NCBI GenBank assembly: GCA_008632985.1
Contig: QPGO01000013.1
Span: 248,001-312,000 of the forward strand
Source of the DNA: Psammoneis japonica
Lineage: Eukaryota
DNA length: 64,000 nucleotides
Direction: 5' to 3'
Part shown: in pieces, positions 1,191 to 60,499 of the stretch
Numbering within the stretch: the stretch's first letter is position 1
How the letters are laid out: each line of letters opens with the position of its first letter
Made by a program: the position numbers and the translations under genes
Notes under the pieces: model-generated
What the model was told of the DNA's origin: nothing
Seen by the model: only the letters and a program-made list of their open reading frames with translations
The model's database searches: none

Positions 1191-1466
1191 TGACAGAAAA
1201 TGAAGGCAAATGGCAAGAATTCAAACAACAACTCCTTGCTGCTGTCTAAATGGCAGATGAGTCTCCGCTCAGAGACCGTTGCAGGAGCCGAAAGACGTGC
1301 AAGTCGGCACAATCGGGCTGCTGTCATTGTTCTTGTGAGCCTTGTGGCTCGAAAGCAAACCACATCACGCGTGAACGCGCGGAACTAAAGCACACAAAAC
1401 TGTGCACGGTAAACTAAACAGCGCGCGATGCTTCGCGCGCACCTAAATCCTGTTCAAATCCTGTCA
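1191..1466 (-). repeat. 3' LTR of copia copy 1
   Basis: Direct repeat of 8025-8300 with TGACAG...CTGTCA termini; adjacent to the PPT. Confidence 0.97.
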
Positions 1467-4400
1467 CTCCCCAGTTTGCTTGAGGAGCCACAGAAACAGA
1501 TTCGACTTCGGATGGAATGAAGTTCCAGAACATGAGGGGGCGGAGAAGGTCCCAGATTTGGGAGCAACCCCAATGCTTGCTGAGAATGTCAGCAGGGTTG
1601 CGGGAGCCTTCGATGAAGTGGAACTCAAGGTGGCCAGAGGCAATTGCCTCACGCACACGGTGGAACGACAGTGCGGTGTGTCGCTTGTGTAACTTGGAGT
1701 GCGGGATGGTGGCACTGTCTACAACCGACTTGTTGTCACCGAACATGCAACTGACATTACGGATCGGGACGCCAAGGTGGCGCAGGGTGATGCGCAGGTC
1801 GATAATCTGCTCAACACAAGTCCTTGCGGCAACAAATTCAGACCCGCAGGTCGCAGTCTCCACGGTGGCTTGTTTCTTAGAGAACCAATCAGCCGGGAAT
1901 TTGTTGAGGAAGTGGAGCATTCCCATGACAGAGCGTCCGGTGAGCATGCAATGGCACAAGTTTGCATCGACGTAGTGGGTGGCAGTGACGAACTTGCCAA
2001 GGGGCAGTGGAGCGTCCTTCGGGATCATCTCTTCTGCTTCACCATACACGGAATGCATCCATTCATGGGCCGGAGCAGGGAGATCCGAACAGTCGGGCTC
2101 TTCCGTGCGAACGTGGAGAGCACCGTGTCGCATCTTGGAGAGGCACCCACAGACGCGCTTGGCACGATCCAAGTGGCCTTGACGGGGCGCAGCTCGGAAG
2201 CTAGAGAGTGACATGACGGCTGTGGCAATGTCAATTCGACCAAGGGACACTGCCCATTGGAGTGAACCAACAAGAGACTGGAACTTGTGGGTGCCATCGG
2301 GTCCCAGCAGTTCGGAAGTGTCCAGTTCGGGGTGGTCACCCTTCTCTAGAGGTGACAGGGCGTTGGTGGCAGGTTTCTCCCCAAACAGTCGGGCACAGCT
2401 GTCGACCATGCGCTCGATGTACTTGCGCGGAGACAGGCACAAGGTTCCGTCGGGTTCCCAGGAAAAGTCGCAACCCAGATGGAACTCAATGGGTCCCGCA
2501 CCCTTGAGCTTGAACTTGTGCTTTTCCGTGAGGGTGTCGACGAAAGATTGAGGGTCCTTCATGGCAATGGCGAGGTCATCCACATAAACGGCAATGCATT
2601 CACAGTGGTCGCCGTTCCTGCGCATCCAAATGTCGGGTTCGGCGCGGCAGGGGAAGAAGCCTTCAGCTCGCAGGCAGTCGGCGAAGCGCTCGTGCCAGCG
2701 GAGACCGGAGCTGCGCAGTCCATGCAGTGCCTTGTGGATGACAAGGATGTGTCCTTCGAGTTTGCCGAACTCGGGTCCAGCTGCAATGTAAAGCTTCTCC
2801 TTGGTGGTGGCTTCAAGGCAGGCATTGCCAATGTCGGTGGCCCATGTCTCCAACTCGTTGAGTTCGGCCAGGAAAATCATCAGCCGAAGGCCACGGAGGG
2901 AGACTGCTCCGGAGTGGACACTGTCGACAGGTGCGTCCGTGAGGTGCCCGTCGGCTACGAGTCGTGCCTTGTGGCGACCGTCGTGTTTCACGTCGTGCAC
3001 CAGGTGCACTCGGATCTTCTTGTGTCCCGCAGGAGGAGTGGAAGACTTGAAGGGCCCGCAGTCATGGAAGACTTCGTATTCGTCGAGTTGGTCCATCTCG
3101 AGATTAGTTGCGTCTCCCCACTTGCGGTTGCCGTTGCGTTCGTCTGGTGACATGGCGTGTTTGTAGTTCCGGGGAACTTCGCATCCATGCTTGTAGCGAG
3201 GTGCAGTGCGGAAGGAGCGAAGCTTGGCTTGGTTGGCCATGCGAAATGGCTTCTTTTGGCGCCTCGCGATGGTGCGGAACCGCTTCCAGCCATCCGTGTC
3301 GAGGAGTCCGTTCTCTCGTGCATAGATGGCACAGGTGACGGGGTCGTCCTTGGCGATGATGGCAAGAGGCTCGGACGTGATCTCCCCACTTTCCCATTCA
3401 AGCATGATGTTGTAGCTGGAGCCTTTCCAGGTTGGGTCGTGAGGCTTCAGAGGTCCTTCGTGTGACACGATGCGTCGAAATTTCCAAACAGTGGTGTCTT
3501 CGTCTTCTTGCTCAATGTGATTCATGATGTCATTGCAGGCAAGGACTTCCTCGCATTCGTCATTGTTGACAGAGCAGACGAACTCAGTGAGCTCGGGATT
3601 GCCATTCACTTTCCATTCGTGGTCTTCGACGGCCTTGACGATGCGAGCTCTGTGGCGTTGTCCATCCTCTTGTGGCTGCATGAGGAAGGCACGTCCAATG
3701 ATGTCTTGCGGATCGAAAACTGGCATCTTGGGTGTCCTGATCTCCCCATCAGGAGAGTCGACGGGGTTGTCGTCATGGCGAGATTTGATGATGGGTTCAG
3801 GTGGCTCCCCATCAGGAGGATCAAGACGCAGGTTTCGGACAGCAGGATCGGGGGTAGCGGAGCGGACGTTGGACCGGCAGAGGATCTTCTGATTCTTGTC
3901 AGATAGAATCTTGAAGGTCATCTGGTGGCCGACGTGCTCAGCAATGCCAACGAAGCGTCCACGCAACTCACGGGATTCGGACGGCCAATCGGAGTCATCG
4001 AGGTGGAAGCACACGGGTTCCCACCAGTGAAAGCGAAGCAATGGGCTGATGTCCGGGGTGGAGCCAGTGAGAGTCTCAAGGGGCGTGCGCCAGTGGAGAC
4101 GTGGGGACGCTGCATGGTTGAGCATGAAGCACACGCACATGAGCGCCAGCAGCCATGTGTGGGCGGGCGAACCAAAACGATCCATGACAGTGTTCGCCAT
4201 GCGCTTCACGGTCTGGTGTCGACGCTCGGCAAAGTTTTGGTGTTGCTGGTGAGGCTCACTTTGCCAGCTAGAGATGAAGAGGGCACGTAGGATCCCGAGC
4301 ACTTTGTTGCTGATCTCAACTTGAGCACGGTCGCCAATGAGTGTGGATGGGGCACCACGTTCACGGATCTGATCCTCGAGTGTGTTGACAAACTCTTTGT

Positions 4401-7083
4401 CCGTCTCAGTGCCATGGACGTCAGTGACAGTAGACTCGGTGCCAACAAACAGTTGGGCGCTGGTGCAACCAGAGTCGATGGCCGGGGTGTCGGCACAAAC
4501 GGTGTCAGTGGCGACAGGCTCGTTGCGGCGGTGCACATTAAGGGCGGGGTTGGGTGATTTGCAGGCCTTGCGAAGGTGTGCACCAGCGGGCATGCGGGCA
4601 TGCTGCGTGGTGCAGTCAAAAGTACGACGGACCGTGTCGGCAGGCAGGAAGCCAAAGCAAGGCCGAAGAGACTCGAAGGGGGGGTCCTTGGGCTGCACAG
4701 TGCGCTCCGGAGGTGGAACATCATCGCCCTGGGGGCCAATCGCATGCAGATGACACTCGTAGAACACGTCGTCGTTCGGAATGAGGTGATCATCGAGGGC
4801 GGACGCATGATCGGCAGACAAGGAAGCGGACATGATGGTCTCGTTGACAACGACACGATGACGGCAGTTGCCGCATTCGTCAAATGGGTTGGCAGTGGGG
4901 TCGTCCTGTGGGTCAGAGATCGCGTCGTACCACTGGTCGTCGTCAGTGACAGAGTGATCGAGGACGGAAGGGTCCCATGTGTCATCACCGGTGAGGATGA
5001 CATGGGGCAGGGTGTCCCATTCGGCGTCAGTGCAAGGTCGCATGGCAACACAAGGCAGGCCAGCCTTGATGTCAATGGGGATGACATGGCCATCAGGAGT
5101 GGCAATGCGTTGCAAGCCGTTGGGCACCTTGACAGAGCGATCGTTGACATCCTGTTTGTGCCATTCGAGCTGGCCGCAGGAATGGATGGTCTTGCCCTTG
5201 CCCGTGCATGCGTGCTGATGGAGCATGGCGATGACGGGACCACGCTGGGTCTCAACAACGGCACCAGCGGCGACAATGGGGATGTCCACCAATTGATGAT
5301 CGTCAATGCCCTGAACGTCGACTTGGCGAGAGGTGCGTGCAATGACGTGAACGTCGTCGCCAGCAATGCCGCCGTTGGCCCCACGATCGACCAGAGCGCC
5401 AGTGCGTGTGGAGCGATGAGCAGAAGCAGAGCAAATGACATTGTGGTTGTCAACGCGGCGGCAAGTGCGACCGTCAAGTTCCATGTCATCTGCAGAAGCT
5501 GGCGGGGTAGAGGAAGCAGCGGATGGCCCCGGTCGACTGGCATTGGGGGCTTGGTTAGGAGACAACAGACGCTGCAGATCACCGGGTGGCAGCGGCTTGC
5601 GCTTGGTGAGGTGCGCCAGGATGGGATTGTCCGAAGTGGCGTCCACATGTGGAGCGGAGTCACCAGAGTCAGCAGGAGTCGTGTTGGACAAGTTGACATC
5701 ACCGTCACTCCCAAGGCGTTGGTCATGAAGGTTAGCCGCAACAGACTCATGGCAGTTGCTGGCTCGCGGGTTGCGGGGAGGTGGACGAGAATGCTCAAGG
5801 ATGATCGCCTTGGAGGAATCGGGCAACGAATCCCAGAGCCGTTGGTGGTCGGGAGGGAGACGTCTCCATTGGACACCGGTGAGGCTGGGACCGTGGGTGT
5901 GGGCAGCATTGGCTTGAAGGACGTCAATGTCGCTGTCAATGTCGTAGAACACATCGTCGGATGGTTCCTCGGAGCAGACGTCGTGTGCGCATGTGGCGCG
6001 TCGGGGAGCTCAAGGTGTCGTCTTGGGTTGAAACGTGCTGTCGCACTGAGCTGCGGCGGAGAGGAGCAAGCCACAGTGTTGATCGCATGTGAGGCTCTTG
6101 CCACTCTGCGCATGATGCTGATCAGCTTGGTTCTTGACAGCACGGAGTTCCTCGACAGGGTGCACGGCATTCTCGAGCATGACGCGCTTCTGTCCTTCAG
6201 AGAAGTGGTCACTGGCCGGGATGAGTGCCTCGTGCTTGCGCAACTGATCTTGCCAATGAAGGATGAACCCGTGGGTCGGACCTTTCCAAGTGCCATCACC
6301 AAGACGCGCGGTGGTGAGGTGCGTGAGCAGGGTGGAGGACTCGACAGATGCGCGGGTGGAGGCAAGCGCGTGCTCAGACAAGGAGCGGCAGACGGTCTGT
6401 GCGTCAGAAGACCCCACATTTTCGCGAATGAGAGCCTTGCCCTTGTCGGTGAGAAGGATGCGTTCGAAGATGGCGAACATGTGCTTTTGCTGTTCAGCAA
6501 AGAGCAGTTTGTCTTCGGGGCTGGTCGGTTTGTACGACGAGTCTAGAATGCACTCGACGTCTTGGGCACGGGCTTGTGCCACAAGTGAGGTGTGCCAAGT
6601 GTGCCACTGCTTGTTGGATTTGAGAGCCGTGAAAGCGGTGGGATCACGCTTGATGCCTCGCTTGAAGTCCCGCACCGGGTCGCGTGCCTTGGTCGGGTTG
6701 GTGACATGTGGAGGTGCAAGGGGTGAGCTGCCGATGGACACAGAAGACATGTGGTCGGGGCTGAGGCGGCAGGCAAGGAACTCGTCATGCGTGGACAAAG
6801 AGGAGTCATTGGCAACGTCAAGACCTTTGTGTGCTTTGACAATGTACAGACTGACTGGCGCTGCTGACATGTTCTCATGACCACGGGGCAAAGGGATTGC
6901 ATCAGTGCCGTTGTCGCACTCAAGCGAGTCGATTTGGGACGGCATGAACGCGAACAGTTCCTGGTGCGAGTCCGTGCCGTCTTGGGCCAAAGCCAAACGA
7001 AGAGGACTCCCAGCACCTTGGGCAAGCACGGTTCCAACCACGTGCTCGAAACCATCGGTTTGTTGCTGACGAGTGAGAACCAT
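1414..7083 (-). pseudogene. gag-pol of copia copy 1; one in-frame TGA at 6010-6012 and heavy Tyr->His/Cys substitution
   Basis: ORFs 6010-7113 and 1414-5952 are in the same frame. Copy 2 has CGA where copy 1 has TGA. Motifs read KALHGL, NACLEA and VHDVK instead of KALYGL, NAYLEA and VYDVK. Confidence 0.92.
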
Positions 7084-8009
7084 GGTGGACAAAGGTGGTG
7101 TCAGGACAATCAATTCTGGCTGGGAAGCGAGGGTGGACTCGAAACTTGGGTGAGAATGGACTTGACTTGAAATGGACTTGACTTGAAATCTTGAACTATC
7201 TTAAAATCAGAAGTCGCCGGGCTTTGTTGTCCCGTTCGTTGTTGAGTGCCAAACTTCCCATCCGGTCCGCAGAGTTGTGCCGGCACGTCCGAACCCGCAG
7301 CTGGCGGCGCTTTGGGTTGCTTGCGAGCGGAGCAGCGGGTTGTAAACCCCTGCAGGCAAGCTGACTAGAGGTGGACAAGACCCCCGAACCGTTCTTGTTT
7401 TATGTCGGTTGGATTTCCCGATCAGGCTGGCTGGTTGACGCAGGCGTCAGGTGCTGTGGACGAACGAACAAACGCGGGAAAGCACCCTCGCCCCAACGTA
7501 GGCTGCAATCACGGCTGCCTGCTCTCACAGTCGTCCTCGTGGACCTAGTGGAACTGTAGAGCACCAGCAGTCCGGGGTAGATCAGGTGCAATGGACTCGG
7601 TGTGCTTGTAGAGTGGCAGCAAAACCGCAGTCCAAAGAGTGGATAAAGGTTCTTGGCCGTGAAGATATGCATATATATATACATGTCTTCAGCGACGAAG
7701 ATCCTTGAATATGTAGGGTTCTTGACCGTTAACCGAGGAACAGGTATATCAAGGGATGTTGATCAAGGATAGACTTGGATATGACCGTTGAATATAAGTC
7801 TTCAGCGATCAAAGGTAGTATAATCAATCCAGATATCCAGCGGTAAGGAGACTTGACGGTGACGTTAACTTCCTGCCGATGCCCTGGTATTGAATGCGCG
7901 TAGACTTGCCGATGTATGTAGAATATATACGGAGGTCCACGTAGAATTGAAATAGCGTCGTTGGTAAATCAACGACGACGATGGCGGTTGCTCAATGGGT
8001 TGACAATGA

Positions 8010-8024
8010 GCAAGACTGTTAATC
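8010..8024 (-). promoter_or_regulatory. Putative primer-binding site of copia copy 1, complementary to a tRNA-Asn anticodon arm
   Basis: gcaagactgttaatc on the + strand abuts the 5' LTR and contains the GUU anticodon loop CTGTTAA. The same sequence occurs in copy 2. Confidence 0.55.
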
Positions 8025-8300
8025 TGACAGAAAATGAAGGCAAATGGCAAGAATTCAAACAATAACTCCTTACTGCTGTCTAAATAGCAGATGAGTCTCC
8101 GCTCAGAGACCGTCACAGGAGCTGAAAGACGTGTAAGTCGGTATAATCGGGCTGCTGTTATTATTCTTGTGAGCCTTGTGGCTCGAAAGCAAACTACATC
8201 GCGCGTGAACGCGCGGAACTAAAGCACACAAAACTGTGCACGGTAAACTAAACAGCGCGCGATGCTTCGCGCGCACCTAAATCCTGTTCAAATCCTGTCA
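8025..8300 (-). repeat. 5' LTR of copia copy 1
   Basis: Direct repeat of 1191-1466; retains most of its TA sites. Confidence 0.97.
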
Positions 8301-29800: not shown

Positions 29801-32545
29801 TGGGCATGAGAAGCTTGGAGATGTGACAAATTGTTCATCGGTGGTGTTTGCTGAAGCGCGTGGAATTTGTGTCATTGAGAAGGGAACCTTGTTCCAACCT
29901 CCAAGAAATGTGACAAAGATGGAAAGATTGCTGCATGCAGCAGGAAGCTTGGTTTGCCAGAAAGCAAGGGAGGGGTCATCCATGACTGGGAGATTGTTGG
30001 AAACAGGAGCACTTGATGATGTGATGGGTCGGTCATTGGGAATGACATTTTCCAAACACAGAAACCATGACAGATCTTGTGCGGAAATGCTTGCATGGAA
30101 ATGCCGATGCACACAGCAAATGGAGAACAGTCAATTGATGCCAAAGAAGGGCTCATGCTCATGCTCATGCTCATTGGTGCTGCAACTGAAGTGGCGCTTT
30201 CACCCCATGGAGTGAAGGACTTGATTGGCTGACGGGAACAAAGAGGATCATTGAGGACAGACAGGCATGGGCATGAGAAGCTCAGAGATGTGACAAAGCA
30301 TTCATCGGTGGTGTTTGCCAAAGCACACAGAATTTGCACTGAGATCCATGCAGAAAATTTCTTGGATCTGCAGAAAATGATGAAAAAATTGACGAGCATG
30401 CAACCCACAAGGAGTTGATGCCAGTCATTTTCCACTCAACAATGTTGTTAACATGCCAAAACAAGGGCATGCCATTGATGCCAATGGCCAGAATGGTCTT
30501 GAAGAACCAGCAACATGCTGTCTGAAAAGGGCAACATCAGTGCAAGAGTGCATGCAGAAACACACGCAGATGTTTTGAGTGGGTGGCTGCTGCAGAATTG
30601 AGAAAGCCCAGACAGTCCACTTTGGGTTTGGTGAAGAAGAACTTTTCAGTGTTGACCTTCAATCTGGCTTGTTCCAGGCACATGAGCTTTTTGAGATGGT
30701 TGTGAAAACCACCTTTCACAAGGCATGGCATTTTGTCAACATGATTTCTGACAAACTCCAGACCTGCCATGAGCTCACTCGTGTGCACTTGGAAAACATC
30801 TGGAGCTCCACAGATTCCCGCAGGCAGTCTACAGTGCTCATGTTTGCCCCAAGGCATGACAATGGTGCACAACCAACATGCGCGCAGAGTCAATTTGATG
30901 TGACAGCATCCCATGTTTAAGTCAAGGGAAGCAGCACACATGAAACCCTAAAGTTTTTGTGGCATGTCTTGAACATTGGGCAGAGGAAACAGAGCACGCA
31001 TTGGCCTCTCACTCAGATCACGGAAGTCAGACAGAAACCAAACTTGACCATTTTTCTTTGGTTGAACAAAGGTTGGAGCTGACCATTTGGAACAATTTGT
31101 TTTCTCAAGACTTCCAGGTTGCACAGTCCATCAACTTCCTTTCCAGCAGCCACCTTCAAGGCTTGTGGCATGGGAAATGGATTTGCATGATGTGGAGTTG
31201 CATCCAATTTTAACTTGAGATCCACAGGTTTCACAGAAAATTCACCTGGAAAACCATCAAAAAGGTTTTCAAATCTTTCTGGGAGGAAGTTCAGCTGCTT
31301 CTGCTCCTCTGGATTAGATGAGTTGCTGCTGCAGTCACATTGTCAAGGTCAGCAGCTGCGTGACAATCTGAGTCAAGGATTCAATTGACCCTCTCATCAA
31401 GACCAATCATGGCATGAGATTCCTCAATGTGACAGGCAATCAACTGGAACACATCAGCATCAAAGAGTGCATCAACATTCTTTGCAGGTGCAGTTGCTTC
31501 CTCCCATTTGATTTCTTTGTTTGCAAAGTCCAATGTGATCCCAAAACTGGACATCAAATTGCATCCCATGATCACATCATGACAACTCAAGGAAGAAGGG
31601 GTGCTGTCAACATGTGCCGTTGTTTCTGTCATCTTGTGTTTGTCAAATTCAGGTGAAGAGAACTGTGTTGCACAGCAACTGTCAGTCATGAAGAGCCCAC
31701 CCTTTGTTTCTCAAGTTTTGGTGGCAGATTTCTTTGTTCTCAATTTCCACGTGAATTTGTGCAAAATTGTGGTTGACAATGTTCTGCTGTCAAGGAGAAT
31801 GTGCAGAGGCTCATTCTTTGTTTTGCCCGAAGAGGCATTCATGGCTGCAAGCAATGACTGCTGGACCAGCATGAATTGCTTTGACCCTTTTCTGGGCTTT
31901 CTGATGTCCAGTGGCATGCAAGACTCCTCGAGCTGCGCCAGTCATTCTTCAGAACTGCTGAACATCATTTTTTCAAACTGACACTTCTCTTTGCTGAGGG
32001 CATCAGAATCACATTTTTTGCTCTTGCACTTTGCGTCATTGTTCAAAGAACTCATCTTGAGTGCTTTTTGAACTGCCTGAAGAACCATGGCATTCAACCC
32101 TTCTTTGGGAGCAGCGTTTTTGTTGTCACAATGGGACCATGTGCAATTGCCATTCTGATGATGCCATTTTGGATCACATTTGTAATTTCCGTGGCATTCT
32201 TTTGCCAGTCATTTAATGACCCAGCACTTGTCTACATCATGAGTGGGTTTTTTGCAACAATTGCACCGCTTGTTGGACTCAGATTGCTTGGCACCAGATT
32301 GGCGACCATTTTTGGGACCATGATTGGATCCATCTTTTGCTTTTGATCTGGGTTTGTTGCTGGCATTAGCCTTGACATGAGTGGAGTCAAAGATGTCCTT
32401 GCCAACCTCCAGATGCTCTAAAAACTTGACCGGGTTGTTGAAGGTGCACTTCAAAATTTTGAAACCTTCAAGGGTCAACTGGTGCTGCCATTTGTGAGGA
32501 GGTGCAAGGTTGCAAAGGACCAACATCCTTGAGCTCATCCTCCTT
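26868..32545 (-). mobile_element. Decayed Ty3/gypsy element A: 3' LTR (~26868-27230), integrase, RNase H, RT, protease, 3' part of gag
   Basis: QNPQANTIVEHVH (integrase), VDASNSQLGAV (RNase H), SLDLNMGCCHIKL and PWGKHEHCRLP (RT; canonical ..DLxxGYY and GKYEY), in gypsy domain order. Confidence 0.85.
29110..30601. mobile_element. ~1.5-kb insertion in the gypsy A RT region, flanked by a 13-bp duplication and containing an internal ~450-bp duplication
   Basis: GAAAGCCCAGACA at 29097-29109 and 30602-30614. Gypsy B is uninterrupted at the equivalent site (~47038-47050). Confidence 0.7.
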
Positions 32546-43200: not shown

Positions 43201-44092
43201 CGGAACTTGTTCAGGCACGTGTGGAGATGTGGCATTGTTGCATGTGCTTAGAACTCACAACAGATCTCTGCAACAGTTTGCTTGGTGAAAACATTTTTGG
43301 TCATGCACACGCAGAAACCTGGTGTGTTTCTATGACCATGAAAAATGCTGGGAAAGCAAGAAAAAAATTTGTTTCAGGAACAAAGATGAGGCTTGCTCAA
43401 TCAGCTCACAAAACAGTTGAATCAAAACAGAAAGCATGGCACAGAGTTCTGTGGCACAGTGCAAGGCCATGGCCTGACAGAATGCCAAAGGTCAACAATG
43501 ACAGAGGCATGAAAGACTCCCTGAGCACCAGGACTGTGATGACATGAGCACCAGCAGAAAGAAGTGAGAAGAGATCAGAGAGATCTGGTCGTCCATCTAG
43601 AAGGTCTGTCCATCATCAATGCACAGTCTGTCTGTCACAGAATGGGTGGACTGACAATTTCACGAACTTCATCAAGCAAATGACAAGTTTTCAATGGCGA
43701 CAAGCCCTCTTCCGACTGCATGTCACCAAGAAATTCTTTGTGGTGCACAGCAAGATGTGACTTTTTCACAGCGACATTCATTTTGACACAAAGTGCGGTC
43801 CACTCTGATGCAGTCAATGGACTCATCAACTCCTTGCCCATGTCGGTCCTGTGAAAGTGCAAAAAGAGGCAATCACAATGATCACATTGTTTTCATTCTT
43901 CCTCGTGAAGCACTGGCAACTCTTGCAATGAATCCACAAACACCTCACAATTGTCATCATCTGGAATGACTGAGTGAAGCATCTTGTGCATTGATGCTCC
44001 CAGCAGACGCTCTGCAAATGATGCTGAGAGCATTTGCACTCTCATCAAATGTGACAGTTTTGTCATCTTTCTCAACAGCAAGCCTGTCAGGA

Positions 44093-45025: not shown

Positions 45026-48000
45026 CAAAACAACAAACATTGCAAATGTTCCTTTGTGCCTTCCATGAGCAACACTGCCAACAACTTGTTCCTCTCTTTT
45101 CTGGGCATCATCAATGTCTGCGCTGAACCCATCTTCTTTCTTGACAATTTCTTCTGGGACGACTCTGCCACAGGTGGGCCACAGGACCCTTCCACCATGT
45201 CAACAATGTTTGTGAGCTAATTGCAACAATCTTGAAGTGCCTCTCCTCTCATCCTGATGAATGAGTGCAAATTGCCTCCAAGCCTTGACAGCCTGGACAT
45301 GTGAGCAGATTCTCTCATTTGCATCAAACAAGACTGACTTGAGAATTTCCAACATTGCCACCATGTCCCAATCCTTCATGACCCTTGCAAACTCCATCAA
45401 CACTCCTTTGACCTTGTGACAGCAAATTGCCTTCATGCACTGTCCCATGATTGTGTCAAATGCCCTCACCTTCTTCTGTGTCTTGCAGATCACATCCTGC
45501 CTGTTTCGCACAGTGACTGCATTGCTCTCCCCAGATTGCCTTGTCCCTCTCCAATGTGGATGCACCCAATGGATGTTCTGGCTCCTCTGGTGGTTTGTTC
45601 TCCTGCCTCAAAGATGCCAGCACCTGCATCTCCAGCCTGGACACTCTTCCAACAAGCTCACTCATCTGCCTGTCAACCTGACTTGGCAATGGTGTCATGC
45701 ACCCCCACTCCTTCAAATCTTTCACTTCCACACTCTCACCAGTTGCATCTTCACCCAGCATGCCAATGTTTCTCCTGGCTTGACACAACTTTGTTACGTC
45801 CTCATTCAGAAGACCCTTGCAGCTTCCTCACAGCAACAAGGCCCTCTGTTGAGAGACTGTCTCTTTGTTCACTTCATCCAGCCAGCTTGTTTGCCACAAT
45901 CTGCTGACACGAATTGCACCTTTGGATTCTTGATGACTTCCCAGCCAGCTTTTTTGACTCCCATGTTGCTCCTTGGGATTTCGTGGCTTGCCAGCTGATC
46001 TGTGACAGTCTTGCCAATCCCCAAACTTGCCACATGGATCACAAACACTGCTCCATGCTGATTGCCATGCCGCCCTGTTGCAGAAGCTAAAAAGCAAGCA
46101 CGAGACCCACCTTCATGTTGAGTTGCAAAAGCATGGATTTGCCACATCACCAACAGTCATCAGTGTTGCTTGCACTTCAACATTGTCTGTCTGTGCTCCA
46201 AAAACTGCATTGCACCCCGATGTTCCAACACCATTGCACAAGCTCGAAGAGAGAGAAACAATTTGCCCCCAAACACTTCTGCACAATTTCACCAGTTTGA
46301 GCTGTTGTTCAGTGCCAGAGCTCATGTGTCCATCAAAACAACAAGGAGCACCCACAGAGACACACTTCATTTTTCATGTTGTGTTGTGGGAACAAAAATG
46401 CTTGCTTGCTCCAAAGTGCACATGGAAAAATTACAAGGTGGTTGGACTTCTCCTCTTTTGGCTTCAATGCATTTGTGGAACAGTCAGCTCATGGCAGTGT
46501 GTTCTGCATGTGCACACAATGGTGCACATGCACCAATGAAGCAGACAAAGGTGGGGCATCTGCTCTTATTGGAGAAAATGGAGCGGGTCTCTAACTTCTC
46601 TAAAAATTGCCCAGAAAGACACTGATTTTCTGTCAAATGAAGTTTTCATGCTGCAACTGCAGCGCTGTTGAACCGTGGAGTCCAACAACTGCTCACAAGT
46701 GATGACATCCATCTTGCAGTCTTGTGAGGGCCACACAGCAGGTCAGAACACCTGATCATCTGGATCGACTCTGCCAAACTCACTGATGCTTGAAAAGCCA
46801 GATCTGCTCATTTTTCAAAAAAAAACTGAAAGCAAAAGAGACCGGATCAGCTCAGCACGCCAGTGAGGTGAGGCACTGCAAGGACTCCAATTGCTTTGAT
46901 TGGCTCAGTTTAGGAGCAAACAGTGCAGCACACTTGTTCTCTTAAGATCACTTGGTGTCCACAACATGGCTTGAGTTTGCCACAATTGGTCTTCTCAAAC
47001 TTGTGTTCACACATGCCAATGCCATTGCGGGTGATGTGAAAGCCCAGACAGCCGGCTTTGGGTTTGGCAAAGAAGGACTTTTTGGCATTGACCTTCAATC
47101 TGGCTTGTTCCAGGCACATGAGCACCATTTCAAGCTTTTTTGAGATGGTCTTGAAAATCACCTTTTGCAAGGCATGGCATGTTGTCAACATGAGTTCTGA
47201 CAATCTCCAGACCTGCCATGAGCTCACTCATGTTGAAAAACACATGGAGCTCTGCAGATTCCCACAGGCAGTCTGCAGTGCTCATGTTTGCCACAAGGCA
47301 TGACGATGGTGCACAACTGACATGCATGTGGAGAGTCAATTTAATGTGACAGCATCCCATGTTCAAATCAAGGGATGCAGCACACATGAAACCTTGAAGT
47401 TTCTGTGGCATGTCTTGAACATTGGGCGGAGGAAATGGGGCACGCATTGGCCTCTCATTCAGTTCACAGAAGTGTTGGACAGAAACTGAACTCAACCATT
47501 TTTCTTTGGTTGAATGAAGGTTGGAGCTGCCCATTTGGAACAATTTATTTTTCTCAAGACTGTTAACTTGCACAGTCTTTCAACTTCCTTTCTGGCAGTT
47601 GCAAGGCTTGTGGCATGGGAAATGGCTTTGCATGATGTGGAATCATGTCCAATTTTAACTTGAGATCCACAGGTTTCCCATTCCATTCACCAGGAGAACC
47701 ATCAAAAAGGTTTTCAAATCTTTCCGGGAGGAAGTTCATCTGCTTCTGCTCCTCTGGAGTTAGATGAGTTGCTGCTGCAGCTGCATTGTCAAGGTCAGGA
47801 GCTGCATGACAATCTGTGTCAAGGACTCAATTGACCCTCTCATCAAGACCAATCACTGCATGAGATTCCTCAATGTGATTGGCAATCAACTTGAACACAT
47901 CAGCAACAAAGAGTGTGTCAACATTCTTCATGGGTGCAGTTGCTTCTTTCCTTTTGATTTCTTCATTTGCAAAGTCCAGTGTGATTCCAAGACTGGACAC

Positions 48001-48162
48001 ATCAAGTCACATCCCATGATCACACCACAATGACTTGAAGAAGAAGGAGCATTGTCAACACATGCCATTGTTTCTGTCATCTCATGCCTGTCAAATTCAG
48101 GCAAAGAGAACTGTGTTCTTGCACAGTGACTGTCAGGCATGAAGAGTCCACCCTTGGTTTCC

Positions 48163-48438
48163 TGACAGGATTTGAACAGGATTTAGGTGCGCGCGAAGTA
48201 TCGCGCGCTGTTTAGTTTACCGTGCACAGTTTTGTGTGCTTTAGTTCCGCGCGTTCACGCGCGATGTAGTTTGCTTTCGAGCCACAAGGCTCACAAGAAT
48301 AATAACAGTAGCCCGATTATACCGACTTACACGTCTTTCGGCTCCTGTAACGGTCTCTGAGCGGAGACTCATCTGCTATTTAGACAGCAGTAAGGAGTTA
48401 TTGTTTGAATTCTTGCCATTTGCCTTCATTTTCTGTCA
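48163..48438 (+). repeat. 5' LTR of copia copy 2 (the least mutated of the four LTRs)
   Basis: Direct repeat of 55000-55276. Confidence 0.97.
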
Positions 48439-49381
48439 GATTAACAGTCTTGCTCATTGTCAACCCATTGAGCAACCGCCATCGTCGTCGTTGATTTACC
48501 AACGACGCTATTTCAATTCTACGTGGACCTCCGTATATATTCTACATACATCGGCAAGTCTACGCGCATTCAATACCAGGGCATCGGCAGGAAGTTAACG
48601 TCACTCTCAAGTCTCCTTACCGCTGGATATCTGGATTGATTATACTACCTTTGATCGCTGAAAACTTATATTCAACGGTCATATCCAAGTCTATCCTTGA
48701 TCAACATCCCTTGATATACCTGTTCCTCGGTTAACGGTCAAGAACCCTACATATTCAAGGATCTTAGTCGCTGAAGACATGTGTATATATACACACATGT
48801 CTTCACGACCAAGAACCTTTATCCACTCTTCGGACTGCGGTTTTGCTGCCACTCTACAAGCACACCGAGTCCATTGCACCTGATCTACCCCGGACTACTG
48901 GTGCTCTGCAGTTCCACCAGGTCCACGAGGACGACTGTGAGAGCAGGCAGCCGTGATTGCAGCCTGCGTTGGGGCAAGGGTGTTTTCCCGCGTTTGTTCG
49001 TTCGTCCACAGCGCCTGACGCCTGCGTCAACTGGCCAGCCTGATCGGGAAATCCAACCGACATAAAATGAGAACGGTTCGGGGGTCTTGTCCACCTCTGG
49101 TCAGCTTGCCTGCAGGGGTTTACAACCCGCTACTCCGCTCGCAAGCAACCCAAAGCGCCGCTGGCTGCGGGTTCGGACATGCCGGCACAACTCTGCGGAC
49201 CGGATGGGAAGTTTAGCACTTGACAACGAACGGGACAACAAAGCCCGGCGACTTCTGATTTTAAGACAGTTCAAGATTTCAAGTCAAGTCCATTTCAAGT
49301 CAAGTCCATTCTCACCCAAGTTTCGAGTCTGCCTTCGCTTCCCAACCAGAATTGATCATCCTGACACCACTTTTGTCCACC

Positions 49382-52300
49382 ATGGTTCTCACTCGTCAGC
49401 AACAAACCGATGGTTTCGAGCACATGGTTGGAACCGTGCTTGCCCAAGGTGCTGGGAGTCCTCTTCATTTGGCTTTGGCCCAAGACGGCACGGACTCGTG
49501 TCAGGAACTGTTCACGTTCATGCCGTCCCAAATCGACTCGCTTGAGTGCGACAACGGCACTGGTGCAATCCCTTTGCCCCGTGGTTACAAGAACATGTTA
49601 GCAGCACCAGTCAGTCTGTACATTGTCAAAGCACACAAAGGTCTTGACGTTGCCAACGACTCCTCTTTGTTCACGCATGACGAGTTCCTTGCCTGCCGCC
49701 TCAGCCCCGACTGCATGTCTTCTGTGTCCATCGGCAGCTCACCCCTTGCACCTCCACATGTCAACAACCCAACCAAGGCACACGACCCGGTGCGGGACTT
49801 CAAGCGAGGCATCAAGCGTGATCCCACCGCTTTCACGGCTCTCAAATCCGACAAGCAGTGGCACACTTGGCACACCTCACTTGTGGCACAAGCCCGTGCC
49901 CAAGACGTCGAGTGCATTCTAGACTCGTCGTACAAACCGACCAGCCCCGAAGACAAACTGCTCTTTGCTGAACAGCAAAAGTGCATGTTCGCCGTCTTCG
50001 AACGCATCCTTCTCACCGACAAGGGCAAGGCTCTCATTCGCGAAAATGTGGGGTCTTCTGATGCACAGACCGTCTGCCGCTCCTTGTCTGAGTGCGCGCT
50101 TGCCTCCACCCGCGCATCTGTCGAGTCCTCCACCCTGCTCACGTGCCTCACCACCGCGCGTCTTGGTGATGGCACTTGGAAAGGTCCGACCCACGGGTTC
50201 ATCCTTCATTGGCAAGATCAGTTGCACAAGCACGAGGCACTCATCCCGGCCAGTGACCACTTCTCTGAAGGACAGAAGCGCGTCATGCTCGAGAATGCCG
50301 TGCACCCTGTCGAGGAACTCCGTGCTGTCAAGAACCAAGCTGATCAGCATCGTACGCAGAGTGGCAAGAGCCTCACACACGATCAATGCTGTGGCTTGCT
50401 CCTCTCCGCGGCAGCTCAGTGCGACAGCACGTTTCAACCCAAGACGACACCTCGAGCTCCCCGACGCACCACACACGCACACGACGTCTGCTCCGAGGAA
50501 CCGTCCGATGATGTGTTCTACGACATTGACAGCGACGTTGACGTCCTTCAAGCCAATGCTGCCTGCACCCGCGGTCCCAGCCTCGCCGGTGTCCAATGGA
50601 GACGTCTCCATCCCGACCACCAACGGCTCTGGGATTCGTTGCCCGATTCCTCCAAGGCGATCATCCTTGAGCATTCTCGTCCACCTCCCCGCAACCCGCG
50701 AGCCAGTGACTGCCATGAGTCTGTCACGGCCAACCTTCACGACCAACGCCTTGGGAGTGACGGTGATGTCAACTTGTCCAACACGACTCCTGCTGACTCT
50801 GGTGACTCCGCTCCACATGTGGACGCCACTTTGGATAATCCCATCCTGGCGCACCTCACCAAGCGCAAGCCACTGCCACCCGGTGATCTGCAACGTCTGT
50901 TGTCTCCTCACCAAGCCCCCAATGCCAGTCGACCGGGGCCATCCGCCGCTTCCTCTACCCCGCCAGCTTCTGCAGATGACACAGAACTTAACGGCCGCAC
51001 TTGCCGCCGCGTTGACAACCACAATGTCATTTGCTCTGCCTCTGCTCATCGCTCCACACGCACTGGCGCTCTAGTCGATCGTGGGGCCAACGGCGGCATT
51101 GCTGGCGACGACGTTCGCGTCATTGCATGCACCTCTCGCCAAGTCGACGTTCAGGGCATTGACGATCATCAATTGGTGGACATCCCCATTGTCACCGCTG
51201 GTGCCGTCATTGAGACCCAGCGTGGTCCCGTCATCGCCATCCTCCATCAGTGCGCATGCACGGGCAAGGGCAAGACCATCCATTCCTGCGGCCAGCTCAA
51301 ATGGTGCAAACAGGATGTCAACGATCGCTCTGTCAAGGTGCCCAACGGCTTGCAACGTATTGCCACTCCTGATGGCTATGTCATCCCCATTGACATCAAG
51401 GCTGGCCTGCCTTGTGTTGCCATGCGACCTTGCACTGACGCCGAATGGGACACCCTGCCCCATGTCATCCTCACCGGTGATGACACATGGGACCCTTCCG
51501 TCCTCGATCACTCTGTCACTGACGACGACCAGTGGTGCGACGCGATCTCTGACCTACAGGACGATCCCACTGCCAACCTATTTGACGAACACGGCAACTG
51601 CCGTCATCGTGTCGTTGTCAACGAGACCATCATGTCCGCTTCCTTGTCTGCCGATCACGCGTCCGCCCTCAATGATCACCTCATTCCGAACGACGACGTG
51701 TTCTACGAGTGTCATCTGCATGCGATTGGCCCCCAGGGCGATGACGTTCCGCCCCCAGAGCGCACTGTGCAGCCCAAGGACCCCCCCTTCGAGTCTCTTC
51801 GGCCTCACTTTGGCTTCCTGCCTGCCGACACGGTCCGTCACACTTTTGACTGCACCACGCAGTGCGCCCACATGCCCGCCAAGTGCACACCTTCGCAAGG
51901 CCTGCAAGTCACCCAACCCCGCCCTTAATGTGCACCGCCGCAACGAGCCTGTCGCCACTGACACCGTTTGTGCCGACACCCCGGCCGTCGACTCTGGTTG
52001 CACCAGCGCCCAACTGTTTGTTGGCACCGAGTCTACCGTCACTGACGTCTACGGCACTAAGACGGACAAAGAGTTTGTCAACACACTCGAGGATCAGATC
52101 CATGAACGTGGTGCCCCATCCAAACTCATTAGCGACCGTGCTCAAGTTGAGATCAGCAACAAAGTGCTCGGGATCCTACGCGCCCTCTTCATCTCTAGCT
52201 GGCAAAGTGAGCCTCACCAGCAACACCAAAACTTTGCCGAGCATCGATGCCAGACCGTGAAGCGCATGGCGAACACTGTCATGGATCGTTTTGGTTCGCC

Positions 52301-55052
52301 CGCCCACACATGGCTGCTGGCGCTCATGTACGTGTGCTTCATGCTCAACCATGCAGCGTCCCCACGTCTCCACTGGCGCACGCCCCTCGAGACTCTCACT
52401 GGCTCCACCCCGGACATCAGCCCATTGCTTCGCTTTCACTGGTGGGAACCCGTGTACTTCCACCTCGATGACTCCGATTGGCCGTCCGAATCCCGTGAGT
52501 TGCGTGGACGCTTCGTTGGCATTGCTGAGCACGTCGGCCACCAGATGACCTTCAAGATTCTATCTGACGAGACTCAGAAGATCCTCTGCCGGTCCAACGT
52601 CCGCTCCGCTACCCCCGATCCTGCCGTTCGAAACCTGCGTCTTGATCCTCCTGATGGGGAGCCACCTGAACCCATCATCAAATCTCGCCATGACGACAAC
52701 CCCGTCGACTCTCCTGATGGGGAGATCAGGACACCCAAGATGCCAGTTTTCGATCCGCAAGACATCATTGGACGTACCTTCCTCATGCAGCCACAAGAGG
52801 ACGGACAACGCCACAGAGCTCGCATCGTCAAGGCCGTCGAAGACCACGAATGGAAAGTGAACGGCAATCCCGAGCTCACTAAGTTCGTCTGCTCTGTCAA
52901 CAATGACGAATACGAGGAAGTCCTTGCCTGCAATGACATCATGAATCACATTGAGCAAGAAGACGAAGACACCACTGTTTGGAAATTTCGACGCATCGTG
53001 TCACACGAAGGACCTCTGAAGCCTCACGACCCAACCTGGAAAGGCTCCAGCTACAACATCATGCTTGAATGGGAAAGTGGGGAGATCACGTCCGAGCCTC
53101 TTGCCATCATCGCCAAGGACGACCCCGTCACCTGTGCCATCTATGCACGAGAGAACGGACTCCTCGACACGGATGGCTGGAAGCGGTTCCGCACCATCGC
53201 GAGGCGCCAAAAGAAGCCATTTCGCATGGCCAACCAAGCCAAGCTTCGCTCCTTCCGCACTGCACCTCGCTACAAGCATGGATGCGAAGTTCCCCGGAAC
53301 TGCAAACACGCCATGTCACTAGACGAACGCAACGGCAACCGCAAGTGGGGAGACGCAACTAATCTCGAGATGGACCAACTCGACGAATACGAAGTCTTCC
53401 ATGACTGCGGGCCCTTCAAGTCTTCCACTCCTCCTGCGGGACACAAGAAGATCTGAGTGCACCTGGTGTGCGACGTGAAACACGACGGTCGCCACAAGGC
53501 ACGACTCGCAGCCGACGGGCACCTCACGGACGTACCTGTCGACAGTGTCTACTCCGGAGTAGTCTCCCTCCGTGGCCTTCGGCTGATGATTTTCCTGGCC
53601 GAACTCAACGAGTTGGAGACATGGGCCACCGACATTGGCAATGCCACCTTGAAGCCACCACCAAGGAGAAGCTTTACATTGTAGCTGGACCCGAGTTCGG
53701 CAAACTCGAAGGACACATCCTTGTCATCCACAAGGCACTGTGTGGACTGCGCAGCTCCGGTCTCCGCTGGCACGAGCGCTTCGCCGACTGCCTGCGAGCT
53801 GAAGGCTTCTTCCCCTGCCGCGCCGAACCCGACATTTGGATGCGCAGGAACGGCGACCACTGTGAATGCATTGCCGTTTATGTGGATGACCTCGCCATTG
53901 CCATGAAGGACCCTCAATCTTTCGTCGACACTCTCACGGAAAAGCACAAGTTCAAGCTCAAGGGTGCGGGACCCATTGAGTTCCATCTGGGTTGCGACTT
54001 TTCCCGGGAACCCGACGGAACCTTGTGCCTGTCTCCGCGCAAGTACATCGAGCGCATGGTCGACAGCTGTGCCCGACTGTTTGGGGAGAAACCTGCCACC
54101 AACGCCCTGTCACCTCTAGAGAAGGGTGACCACCCCGAACTGGACACTTCCGAACTGCTGGGACCCGATGGCATTCACAAGTTCCAGTCTCTTGTTGGTT
54201 CACTCCAATGGGCAGTGTCCCTTGGTCGAATTGACATTACCACGGCCGTCATGTCACTCTCTAGCTTCCGAGCTGCGCCCCGTCAAGGCCACTTGGATCG
54301 TGCCAAACGCGTCTGTGGGTGCCTCTCCAAGATGCGACACGGTGCTCTCCGCGTTCGCACGGAAGAGCCCGACCATTCGGATCTCCCTGCTCCGGCCCCA
54401 TGAATGGATGCATTCCGTGCATGGTGAAGCAGAAGAGATGATCCCAAAGGACGCTCCACCGCCCCTTGGCAAGTTCGTCACTGCCACCCACTACGTCGAT
54501 GCAAACTTGCACCATTGCATGCTCACCGGACGCTCTGTCATGGGAATGCTCCACTTCCTCAACAAATTCCCGGCTGATTGGTTCTCTAAGAAACAAGCCA
54601 CCGTGGAGACTGCGACCTGCGGGTCTGAATTTGTTGCCGCAAGGACTTGTGTTGAGCAGATTGTCGACCTGCGCATCACCCTGCGCTGCCTTGGCGTCCC
54701 GATCCGTAACGTCAGTTACATGTTCGGTGACAACAAGTCGGTTGTAGACAGTGCCACCATCCCGCACTCCAAGTTACACAAGCGACACACCGCACCATCG
54801 TTCCACCGTGTGCGTGAGGCAATTGCCTCTGGTTGCCTTGAGTTCCACTTCATCGAAGGCTCCCGCAACCCTGCTGACATTCTCAGCAAGCATTGGGGTC
54901 ACTCCCAAATCTGGGACCTTCTCCGCCCCCTCATGTTCTGGAACTTCATTCCATCCGAAGTCGAATCTGTTTCTGTGGCTCCTCAAGCAAACTGGGGAGT
55001 GACAGGATTTGAACAGGATTTGGGTGCGCGCGAAGCATCGCGCGCTGTTTAG
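49382..55052 (+). pseudogene. gag-pol of copia copy 2; frameshifts at ~51880, ~53645 and ~54399, and TGA at 53454-53456
   Basis: Four ORF pieces colinear with the copy 1 polyprotein. The terminal TAG lies inside the 3' LTR. Confidence 0.92.
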
Positions 55053-55276
55053 TTTGCCGTGCACAGTTTTGTGTGCTTCAGTTCCGCACGTTCACGCGCG
55101 ATGTAGTTTGCTTTTTGAGCCACAAGGCTCACAAGAATAATGACAGTAGCCCGATTGTACCGACTTACACGTCTTTCGGCTCCTGCAACGGTCTCTGAGC
55201 GGAGACTCATCTGCCATTTAGACAGCAGCAAGGAGTTGTTGTTTGAATTCTTGCCATTTGCCTTCATTTTCTGTCA
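55000..55276 (+). repeat. 3' LTR of copia copy 2
   Basis: Direct repeat of 48163-48438 with 12 substitutions and 1 indel. Confidence 0.97.
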
Positions 55277-57635
55277 TTTCCCAAGTTTTGGTGGTGGATT
55301 TCTTCATTCTCATTTTCTGAGTGAATTTGCACAAAATTGTGGTTGACAATGTTCCACTGTCAAGGACAGCATGCAGAGGCTTCTTCTTTGCTTCACCCAA
55401 GCAGGCATTCATGCAAGCGATGACTGCCAGACTGGCGCAAATTGCTTTGGCCCTTTTTCTGGGCTTCCTGACATGTCCAGCGGCGTGTGAGACTCCTCGA
55501 GCAGTGCCAGTCATTCTTCAGAATTGCCGCACATCATTTTTTTAAATTGACAATTCTCCTTCTTGCTGATGGCAACAGAGTTGCATTCTTTGCTCTTGCA
55601 CTTTGTGTTGTTGTTCAAAGATCTTGCCTTGAGTGGTGCTTTTTGAATTGCCTGGACCACCATGGCATTGAACTCTTCTTTGCGAGCGGCATTTCCATTG
55701 TTGTGACATGACCGTGTGCAATTGCCATTTGAATGACACATTTTTGGATCACGTTTGCAGCTTTCATGGCACTCTTTTGCCAGTTGTTTAATGGCCCAGC
55801 ATTTGTCTGCATTGCGATTGGATTTCTTGCAATGATTGCACCGCTTGTCAGACTCACATCATTTGGCACCAGATTGGCAACCATCATTGGAACCAGGGCT
55901 GGATCCATCCTTGTCTTTTGATCCAGGTTTGTTGCTGGCATCAGCCTTGACATGGACAGCATCAAAGATGTCCTCAGAAACCTCCAGACACTCTAAAAAC
56001 TTGACCAACTCATCGAAGGCATGTTTCAAAATCTAGAAACCTTGAGCTGTCGACTGGTGCAGCCATTTGCAAGGTGCAAGATTGCAGAGGATGTCCTTGA
56101 GCTTGTCCTCCTCAATCTTCTAACCTTCCTCAAAGGGAGGACAAAGCTTGAGGTCTTCTTTGTCTTCTTGTGGCCAAGCAGCGATTTTTTGAATCTTCAT
56201 GCTCTTCGGCTTTTGAGATCATGCCACAAACAACGCCCCTGAATCTGAAGTGCGTTCTTTGGGAAAACATGCCTGGTGAGGCACTGTTGACACTTTTCAA
56301 AGGCTCCTTTGCTCTCTTCATCTTCTACATTTGCAGCCCCATTCTCAAAAGCACACAGAGCATCTCTCCCTGAAGAAGTGACACACGCACAAGACAGAAC
56401 TCACCCGATTTCTTCTTGACGTTCTGACCCGCCAAGAGTTGCTCGCAGTTCTTTGAGAACATGATGCACTTGCAAATGCCTTGCTTCTTGCAATGCTCAA
56501 CATTGATGGCACAAGTGTGACTGTCCTTCTTTCCTGGGTGAAAACACTGCTCCATTTTGAGGTGTTGGCTCGGTTTGAGTGTCTTTGGCTTGAAAATTGA
56601 TTCCAGTGGTTGTGGCGCACAATTTTTTCCTGCTTGAAGGAAGACTTGGCATCAGCAACATGAGATGAGAGCTTTATTTTCATCTTGACACCTTCTGTGG
56701 TGTGCACACACAATGCACTGTGCTTGAAGAATGAGTGCAAACGAGCGCAGAACAAAGTGCGAAAAGTGAAAATTGTGAGAGAGGTCAGATTTTGCTCAAT
56801 CATTTTTGGGTTTCTCCAAATGAGTTCTCAATGGCCCAAAGCTTTTGCACCAGTCCTGCAGACTAAAAGGCCTTTTGGAGAACATCTTCGTGACAGCATG
56901 TTGTCCGGATGCGTTTGCCGTTGACACACAGGATGTCAACATCGTCAAGCGATCGCATTTGCAATTTCCGACATCCGATCAATTCTGTGTGACTGATCTG
57001 TCCTTCGTGCGAACCCACGATTGGCGTGCAATTGAAACAGAACAACATTTTAAAAAGTGTGTCAATCGAACCCCACCCATCCAGACCATTTGCCTGCCGA
57101 CAGTCCACAGAGATCACTGATGCAACGCCTGGAAAGACAACAAAAACCCATCATCACACTGAACATGGTGCCAGATTCAGTTCAAAATTCACACGCACTG
57201 CCCACGAAATTGTGCGCGTCAACCACCCCTTGCTCGCACGACTGCACCAACTGCACAACATCCATTTCCCACAACGTGCATGTAAAATGCACTCCTGCAT
57301 GACAGCGCATGTTGCACTGGCCGCATTCTTTGGTGCACTTCCTCCATGCACAGCACCACTACCACATGAAGGATTGTTCACAGCTGCAGCAGGTGGATGC
57401 TTCGATCTCTCTCCAACAGACAGCAGTTGCCCGTCGCCATGCTGTCTGCACTCTCCACCGACTCCTCACTGTCGCCGTGTTGTTTCAGTCAAGTAGAAGT
57501 TAGTAGCCGTACAGCACATGCCAGACATGACGTCACCAGCAATTCCGGCCATAAGTAAGTTCAGAAAGCCGACACAAGGTGTGTCACCCGCAGAGCACGA
57601 AGAAGAACGCAACTTCTCGTTTCTCGTACAACAAC

Positions 57636-60390: not shown

Positions 60391-60499
60391 CTCTATTCAC
60401 AGACGTATTGATGGGGTCTGCGGCACTACTACGGTTCCGGTCAGCGTCACTCGATTGCTGCTGTTCATAGAGACGTGTACGACGGCTCGTGTAGAATCC

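Follow-up and report, generated by a model that had tools for sequence, protein, structure and literature searches.

Introduction

The closest described counterpart of the pattern reported here comes from the alga Bigelowiella natans. According to a preprint (Mettrop et al., bioRxiv 10.64898/2026.01.13.699255), two integrated viral regions in mutation accumulation (MA) lines gathered 231 mutations, 230 of them A>G or T>C and all located at TpA, and the TpA mutation rate was ~1000 times background, in some lines only. The same text describes hypermutated inserts of nucleocytoplasmic large DNA viruses (NCLDVs) and virophages, a target that is transcriptionally silent, clusters poor in TpA and rich in CpA and TpG, and an over-representation of reverse-transcriptase and DDE domains among TpA-poor genes, and it proposes an ADAT2-like candidate deaminase (bioRxiv 10.64898/2026.01.13.699255). 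As a defence principle, TpA removal at hundreds of times the background is known from this single 2026 preprint, and the terms 'LTR' (long terminal repeat), 'copia', and 'retrotransposon' are absent from its main text. Here, we analyze a 64,000-nucleotide stretch of Psammoneis japonica contig QPGO01000013.1 (assembly GCA_008632985.1, positions 248,001 to 312,000; hereafter, the window, numbered from its first nucleotide), which contains two copia LTR retrotransposons (copy 1 and copy 2). Both copies have lost TA dinucleotides (TpA) through a process that acts on DNA, is strand-symmetric, TpA-specific, and locally targeted, and follows integration. Per-site TA loss lies far above background substitution and several-fold above CpG decay.

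Literature searches on TpA hypermutation, retrotransposons, and algae, with subscription journals outside their coverage, returned only this preprint and work on fungal repeat-induced point mutation (RIP). For ADAT/TadA enzymes, U33-A34 is the natural context. ADAR prefers U or T before the target A, as stated in the Discussion of the preprint (bioRxiv 10.64898/2026.01.13.699255). A modified base has also been mapped to TA steps: in dinoflagellates, a preference of 5-hydroxymethyluracil (5hmU) for TA and TC steps is reported from Crypthecodinium, and the base is concentrated on transposable elements, LTR-element interiors among them, and tied to their silencing, whereas in Breviolum no sequence motif emerged from chemical mapping (PMC11572971, PMC11071213).

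Results

Structure of the two copia elements

Based on LTR ends, target-site duplications (TSDs), and the RVT_2 domain, both elements are Ty1/copia LTR retrotransposons. Copy 2 lies on the plus strand and copy 1 (1191–8300) on the minus strand; in each, direct LTRs with TG...CA termini (TGACAG...CTGTCA) are bounded by perfect 5-bp TSDs. A purine-rich GGGGAG lies ahead of the 3′ LTR. The TSDs differ (TTTCC in copy 2, CCCCG in copy 1), showing that these are two separate insertions. The features are as follows.

48158..48162, plus strand: upstream TSD of copy 2 (TTTCC), which occurs only once at the empty paralogous site around 31706
48163..48438, plus strand: 5′ LTR of copy 2, 276 bp with 17 TA and 20 CpG; spared, no TA lost
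48439..48792, plus strand: first ~350 bp of the copy 2 leader; spared, ending at a (TA)n run at element position ~620–630
48793..54999, plus strand: rest of the copy 2 leader and gag-pol body; hypermutated, with a single CGA>TGA stop and three indels that shift the frame
55000..55276, plus strand: 3′ LTR of copy 2, 277 bp with 7 TA remaining; 10 TA losses, 2 CpG losses, and 1 insertion
55277..55281, plus strand: downstream TSD of copy 2 (TTTCC)
8025..8300, minus strand: 5′ LTR of copy 1, 14 TA remaining; largely spared; TSD CCCCG at 8301–8305
1467..8024, minus strand: leader and gag-pol of copy 1, 1,928 codons; spared to element position ~630 and hypermutated after it
1191..1466, minus strand: 3′ LTR of copy 1, 5 TA remaining; 12/17 TA lost; TSD CCCCG at 1186–1190
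31700..31712, plus strand: paralogous site that lacks the copy 2 insertion, in an older repeat with no copia and a single TTTC(T/C)

The polyprotein carries a copia-type reverse transcriptase (RVT_2, PF07727; 89.9 bits against a Pfam cut-off of 31.6), and this is the only Pfam family reported for the decayed protein. Over its full length, the copy 1 polyprotein is 60–71% identical to metagenomic PF07727 polyproteins of about 1,800–1,930 amino acids. In-frame TGA stops occur at codon 396 of copy 1 (CGA in copy 2) and at codon 1396 of copy 2 (CGA in copy 1), and the three indels of the copy 2 frame are single-base. Since both stops are CGA>TGA changes, they are products of CpG decay and not of the TpA process.

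TA loss between the LTRs of each copy

The LTRs of copy 2 (48140–48460 and 54977–55300, aligned with MAFFT) differ by 12 substitutions, none of them a transversion, and one single-base indel; 10 of the 12 substitutions fall within TA. Read from the 5′ to the 3′ LTR, five of these are A>G (tttAgg, tttAcc, aatAac, attAta, and gttAtt) and five are T>C (aagTat, cttTag, ctgTaa, tgcTat, and cagTaa), whereas the remaining two substitutions are CpG changes (GCGCG>GCACG and TTCGA>TTTGA). TA steps cover 34 of the 276 LTR positions, and the probability of finding at least 10 of 12 substitutions there is 4e-8. An earlier reading of these letters without database searches (hereafter, the sequence-only reading) had listed ten TA->CA/TG substitutions among 12, five per type, with two CpG changes, one indel, and no transversions; our alignment reproduces all ten triplets and agrees exactly with the other counts.

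At all 10 differing TA sites of copy 2, the TA state is in the 5′ LTR (two-sided P = 0.002). The same holds for copy 1, in which nine single TA differences all have TA in the 5′ LTR, accompanied by one TG-vs-CA site, two CpG differences, and no others. Accordingly, the 5′ LTRs contain 17 (copy 2) and 14 (copy 1) TA steps, and the 3′ LTRs only 7 and 5; pooled over both copies, 3/34 TA steps were lost in the 5′ LTRs against 22/34 in the 3′ LTRs (Fisher P = 3e-6). When all four LTRs were aligned, the 22 variable columns consisted of one flank base, one indel, 16 columns in 15 of the 17 TA steps, and four CpG columns; no substitution falls outside TA and CpG within the LTRs. Seven losses are common to both 3′ LTRs, close to the 7.1 expected if they were independent (10 x 12 / 17).

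Because LTRs are identical at insertion, LTR retrotransposon targets provide a natural before-and-after experiment. Where TSDs are intact, differences between the LTRs of an element can only be DNA changes that postdate reverse transcription, and the comparison therefore places the process on chromosomal DNA and on both strands. The sequence-only reading had placed the change after insertion, which is borne out by both copies; its description of the LTR pattern was right, but it missed the 5′/3′ polarity of the TA state and the spared zone described below.

Direction of change at conserved tyrosines

The direction of change was read from 41 alignment columns for which 80% or more of 40 homologous polyproteins have Tyr. 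Tyr was kept in both copies at only 8 columns, replaced by Phe in both at 4, and replaced concordantly by His or Cys at 13; at 8 further columns one copy has His and the other Cys, at 7 Tyr was lost in one copy only, and one column is a gap. Other conserved residues were kept in both copies at 69–100% of their columns (Thr 27/39, Lys 35/42, and the rest at least 81%). Replacement of Tyr (TAY) by His (CAY) or Cys (TGY) corresponds to TA>CA or TA>TG, hence the direction is loss of TA, and the discordant His/Cys columns show that each copy was hit independently. With a second anchoring of 38 Tyr columns, we counted 10 Tyr, 10 His, and 15 Cys in copy 1 and 13 Tyr, 6 His, and 15 Cys in copy 2. The excess of Cys over His at Tyr codons is explained by the preferential change of A before C or T (see below).

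Strand symmetry, sequence context, and CpG decay

Alignment of copy 1 with copy 2 (7,116 columns, 218 substitutions) revealed 79 TA steps present in both copies, 53 present in one only, and 35 sites with TG in one copy and CA in the other, compared with 472 CpG sites in both and 61 in one only. TA and CpG account for all but 34 of the substituted positions over these 7.1 kb. The 120 TA events divide almost evenly between TA>TG (62) and TA>CA (58), and the target A was changed at 0.31 of opportunities before C or T and at 0.18–0.19 before A or G. Per copy, at least 31–43% of TA steps and 5–6% of CpG sites were lost, such that per-site TA loss is ~six times CpG loss over the whole element, as a lower bound. 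At ~5–6% CpG loss per copy, double CpG hits explain about one of the 35 swaps, and the swaps are therefore sites at which TA was lost twice. The TpA odds are 0.07–0.26 in the bodies of the copies and 0.23 for all of copy 2 beyond position 630, counting the 3′ LTR. CpG decay represents a second, slower process, seen in 2 of 12 LTR changes, in 61 sites between the copies, and in the CpG depletion of old repeats.

Two editing routes do not fit the data. The mark of APOBEC-type hypermutation of cDNA (plus-strand G>A in GG/GA context) is not seen, as the G>A and C>T differences between the copies are nearly all within CpG. ADAR-type editing of the sense-strand RNA, fixed by retrotransposition, does not predict what is observed: 58 of the 120 changes read T>C in the sense orientation, and the LTRs of one element differ.

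These data also bear on the remaining claims of the sequence-only reading. Change on both DNA strands, which it took from the copy 2 LTRs (5 A>G and 5 T>C), extends to the whole elements, and with 62 vs 58 events the strand symmetry speaks, as it had argued, against ADAR-type RNA editing. Its estimate that TA loss outpaces CpG decay about five-fold is matched per site in the copy 2 LTRs (10/17 TA vs 2/20 CpG) and in the element-wide losses given above. It had further called LTR-divergence dating unreliable in this genome. This stands for the elements studied: LTR dating is inflated here more than ten-fold, because an apparent LTR divergence of 4.3–4.7% (4.3% in copy 2) is reached with 0/276 positions changed outside TA and CpG. 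It does not stand as a genome-wide property, as the process is limited to repeat domains.

A spared zone at the 5′ end of the element

TA loss is unevenly distributed along the element. Within element positions 0–630, 3/47 TA sites were changed, compared to 85/120 beyond position 630 (P = 6e-15). This spared zone comprises the 5′ LTR and ~350 bp of the 940-bp leader and contains 44 TA common to both copies; its three losses are all in copy 1, with none in copy 2 before position 630. In both copies, loss starts at the (TA)n run (element positions 620–636). Other substitutions occur at 4/627 positions (0.64%) in the spared zone and at 30/6,482 (0.46%) elsewhere, and this equal density on the two sides of the boundary shows that the 5′ end is not younger. 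Both 5′ LTRs adjoin TA-free DNA, thus the sparing was not borrowed from the flanks. Sparing follows the polarity of the element itself, and since the identical 3′ LTR is hit, targeting depends on position in the element and not on sequence.

The spared leader is also unusual in composition, being TA-rich (TpA odds ~1.0 over the first 630 bp). It contains a ~125-bp imperfect internal repeat (48440–48800; 7665–8024 in copy 1) that ends in the (TA)n run where loss begins.

TpA loss in repeat domains of the window

To place the elements in their surroundings, TpA and CpG odds were computed in 1-kb windows. The host-gene stretches (~16–22, 33.4–35.6, and 58–64 kb), which encode ubiquitin-like, SPX-MFS, histidine-kinase, and cold-shock/RRM genes, have TpA odds of 0.44–0.71 and CpG odds of ~1 over most of their length. 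In the repeat stretches (8.3–15, 23–33, 36–48, and 55.3–57 kb), TpA odds are 0.00–0.16, CA+TG 1.7–2.05, and CpG odds 0.03–0.5 (mostly 0.03–0.3). Domain edges are sharp (~200 bp), with non-coding DNA included. TG-vs-CA double differences numbered 184 in paralogue pairs from the repeat domains and 0 in all four alignments located in, or mainly in, the host-gene stretches (1–815, 16208–16411/63631–63855, 59345–59678, and 60075–60493). TpA loss is therefore confined to repeat domains and is not genome-wide, as shown for this window.

The TA- and CG-poor repeat domains (8300–15000, 23000–33000, 36000–48160, and 55280–57000) carry 0–10 TA per kb, and because TGA is the sole remaining stop in TA-free DNA, long false open reading frames (ORFs) occur in all six frames. 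Of the 59 long ORFs in the old TA-free repeats, 36 were scanned against Pfam and no family reached its cut-off; there was a weak DUF441 match (17 bits, cut-off 26.5). Tandem arrays are found in the TA-free domains at 13850–14440 (unit ~150/414 bp), 23800–25310 (380–405 bp), and 29430–30340 (443–466 bp).

Several segments at the margins deserve mention. A 455-codon, Cys/His-rich frame on the minus strand (14770–16137; weak Sir2 match, 19.2 bits with a cut-off of 24) is TA-poor (1–2 TA per 200 bp) yet CpG-rich, as are the young copias, and may be a gene or captured fragment newly under the mutator. The ~375 bp past the copy 1 3′ LTR (816–1190) contain ~3 TA at normal CpG, with normal DNA from ~815; this segment could represent leakage of the mutator beyond the element end, or older target DNA. 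Positions 1–815 and 57637–58452 form an inverted duplication (87% identity) of the start of the histidine-kinase gene region. It provides an internal control, since the two parts differ in an ordinary way, by 50 transversions and 27 other transitions with 0 TG-vs-CA.

Other copies and relatives

The copia family was found at very high summed depth in contigs of run X1, which may be the window's own source and is not independent of the assembly. Among the 31 variant events listed for these contigs, 19 are TA-type (9 of them TG-vs-CA), 9 are CpG-type, and 3 are other changes. A metagenome scan yielded 50 loci with 39–77% protein identity to the copia polyprotein, none of which belongs to the same copia family; polarisation therefore rests on protein conservation. 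For most of these relatives, TpA odds are 0.5–1.0, and 47/50 have three or fewer His or Cys at the 38 Tyr columns. The other three (L014, L029, and L036) show Tyr->His/Cys decay at 13/25, 13/17, and 11/16 columns, with TpA odds of 0.31, 0.27, and 0.13, and have normal CpG despite low TpA. As a control, two signature-free relatives with non-identical terminal repeats had 2 TA-type changes among 24 differences. Because the three decayed relatives come from environmental assemblies, the process occurs in organisms sampled elsewhere, and decay in 3 of 50 environmental relatives suggests a distribution of the system across protists of marine and fresh waters.

Discussion

A probable locally targeted TpA mutator

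We conclude, with a probability of roughly 80%, that both copias are independent recent insertions, and that a TpA->TpG/CpA mutator with local targeting is degrading them in the chromosome. Such a mutator would convert the A of 5′-TA-3′ to G on either strand, or cause the T of TpA to be read as C. Its recruitment would depend on whether mobile DNA is silenced, at the level of chromatin or transcript, and not on sequence or repeat homology, which fits both the old repeats without TA and the transcriptionally silent target in B. natans. In an element that was active until recently, the promoter-proximal end may resist the mutator until silencing is complete, after which repeats would lose essentially all TA, and all CpG through cytosine methylation. 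Under such a scheme, recruitment would follow the polarity of transcription or chromatin, by guidance from nascent transcripts or by exclusion from a live promoter. For the chemistry, we lean slightly toward an ADAT/TadA-like enzyme that deaminates adenine in DNA, an option that the modest preference for TA before a pyrimidine fits; alternatively, a modified thymine at TpA could miscode, as might be the case with 5hmU. That the elements undergo silencing-coupled editing of a polarity opposite to RIP (AT>GC at TpA), in an organism other than B. natans and in a way that reads the state of the element and not its sequence, is a tentative proposal to which we give somewhat less than even odds.

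Among the explanations that compete with this mutator, the least improbable, although still unlikely, is editing before integration, in which RNA, an RNA:DNA hybrid, or cDNA was deaminated by an ADAR-, ADAT-, or APOBEC-like enzyme and the copies arrived hypermutated. The 5′ sparing common to both copies resembles the gradients of retroviral cDNA editing, and the differences between copies on a very low background divergence would suit a burst; however, a single minus-strand template predicts identical LTRs, and 10 TA sites differ in each copy. Late editing of the displaced minus strand would give plus-strand T>C only, which the mixed T>C and A>G changes of copy 2 contradict; moreover, unrelated old repeats are TA-free with TG-vs-CA swaps after duplication, and B. 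natans acquires the same signature in chromosomal DNA in real time. A genome-wide instability of TpA, with host genes looking normal through selection on TA, would account for the mildly TpA-poor host-gene domains (odds 0.5–0.7), but it is very unlikely given edges that are sharp within ~200 bp even where non-coding DNA is included, and given 184 TG-vs-CA swaps in repeats against none in host-gene paralogue pairs. In addition, the 5′ LTR and leader of the dead elements, although not under selection, share 44 TA, while the 3′ LTR loses 10–12 of 17. An artefact of base calling or assembly, by which TpA modification in silenced repeats makes TA read as CA or TG, would naturally be limited to repeat domains, where modification is expected. 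We consider it a shade less probable again: run contigs contain 73% of the sampled 31-letter words from a TA-free stretch and keep the TG/CA alternatives on separate contigs (the window may itself derive from this run), three metagenome contigs of other assemblies show the same Tyr->His/Cys decay, and Illumina sequencing underlies the B. natans result.

Two further accounts concern the 5′ LTRs. Gene conversion or recombination could have refreshed the 5′ ends, or GC-biased conversion could have acted between copies, and the two 5′ LTRs are indeed closer to each other than to their own 3′ LTRs. This is highly improbable, as both elements retain perfect TSDs, the 5′ 630 bp are as divergent at non-TA/non-CpG positions as the rest (0.64% vs 0.46%), the boundary is identical in both copies, and biased conversion lacks TpA specificity. 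In the opposite direction, RIP-like or methylation-driven C>T change at CpA and CpG would make the TA-rich 5′ LTRs the mutated ones. Fungal RIP turns CpA into TpA on both strands in repeats, and a gain of TA was our initial suspicion from TA states that all lie in one LTR per pair; the Tyr test ruled it out, with conserved Tyr codons that became His or Cys and not the reverse. No new TAA or TAG stops arose (new stops are CGA>TGA only), the 5′ LTRs would need to have gained the same 13 TA independently from ~50 CA/TG sites, and repeats finish TA-free, not TA-rich, all of which leaves this account with next to no probability.

Several points weigh against the conclusion that a local mutator degraded both copies after integration. 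Only two LTR pairs were examined, of one family and both within the 64-kb window. Concordant Cys/Cys columns (10) outnumber His/His columns (3), and some Tyr losses may have been inherited from a source element; more broadly, body differences between the copies could partly predate integration, as the timing rests on the LTR-LTR differences. The 8 Tyr that survive in both copies all lie at codons 1262–1742, more than a uniform rate predicts, and this cluster implies site or regional heterogeneity. Runs tests found no significant clustering of losses by copy (P = 0.21) or strand (P = 0.09), hence processive bursts have left no direct trace. Within the spared zone, CpG sites have decayed less as well, though not significantly (1/39 vs 60/494, P = 0.11), and the cause of the 5′ sparing is something we only infer.

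Comparison with known systems

Among enzymes, ADAR and the TadA-type ADAT share the A>G outcome, and the mild preference for TA before a pyrimidine is compatible with them. Their known roles are on RNA, whereas here both DNA strands are changed and the LTRs of one element differ. A miscoding modified T at TpA, such as 5hmU, would yield the same strand-symmetric signature, but the passages on dinoflagellates describe no mutational consequence of 5hmU (PMC11572971, PMC11071213). A search of the window for a dinoflagellate spliced-leader motif gave 0 matches at up to three mismatches, and the dinoflagellate/5hmU idea is a lead without support.

The process resembles RIP of ascomycete fungi in that it acts at the DNA level on both strands, affects one dinucleotide, inactivates mobile DNA, and leaves a footprint, and in both cases divergence-based dating is spoiled. 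Its polarity is opposite, with CpA>TpA (C>T) in RIP and TpA>CpA/TpG here. RIP covers the whole duplicated length, whereas 630 duplicated bp are spared here, and nothing in our data indicates a dependence on repeat pairing or a sexual cycle.

The closest likeness is to B. natans. In both, A>G and T>C occur nearly alone and only at TpA, which becomes TpG or CpA depending on the strand, the process is limited to foreign or mobile regions, and long-term TpA depletion comes with an excess of CpA and TpG. The B. natans rate was measured in MA lines, whereas the signature here comes from sequence comparison. B. natans has 8 introns per gene and 12.9% repeats according to a table in PMC13746701, from which the window, with its long uninterrupted host ORFs and dense repeats, would seem to differ. 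The targets also differ, being LTR retrotransposons and unidentifiable repeats here and not giant-virus or virophage inserts, and depletion in the window is complete (1-kb windows with 0–5 TA) with CpG loss alongside.

TpA-targeted hypermutation of these copias is a further case of a kind reported so far in one alga, B. natans. Elements decayed in this way evade domain searches, and Tyr->His/Cys decay offers a simple marker for locating the system elsewhere, including in metagenome surveys. What is new here is the element-polar spared zone, which is informative on mechanism: the LTR pairs act as an internal clock and expose a zone of which the main text of the B. natans preprint makes no mention, and a 5′ LTR that is spared while the identical 3′ LTR is hit constrains models of how the enzyme is recruited.

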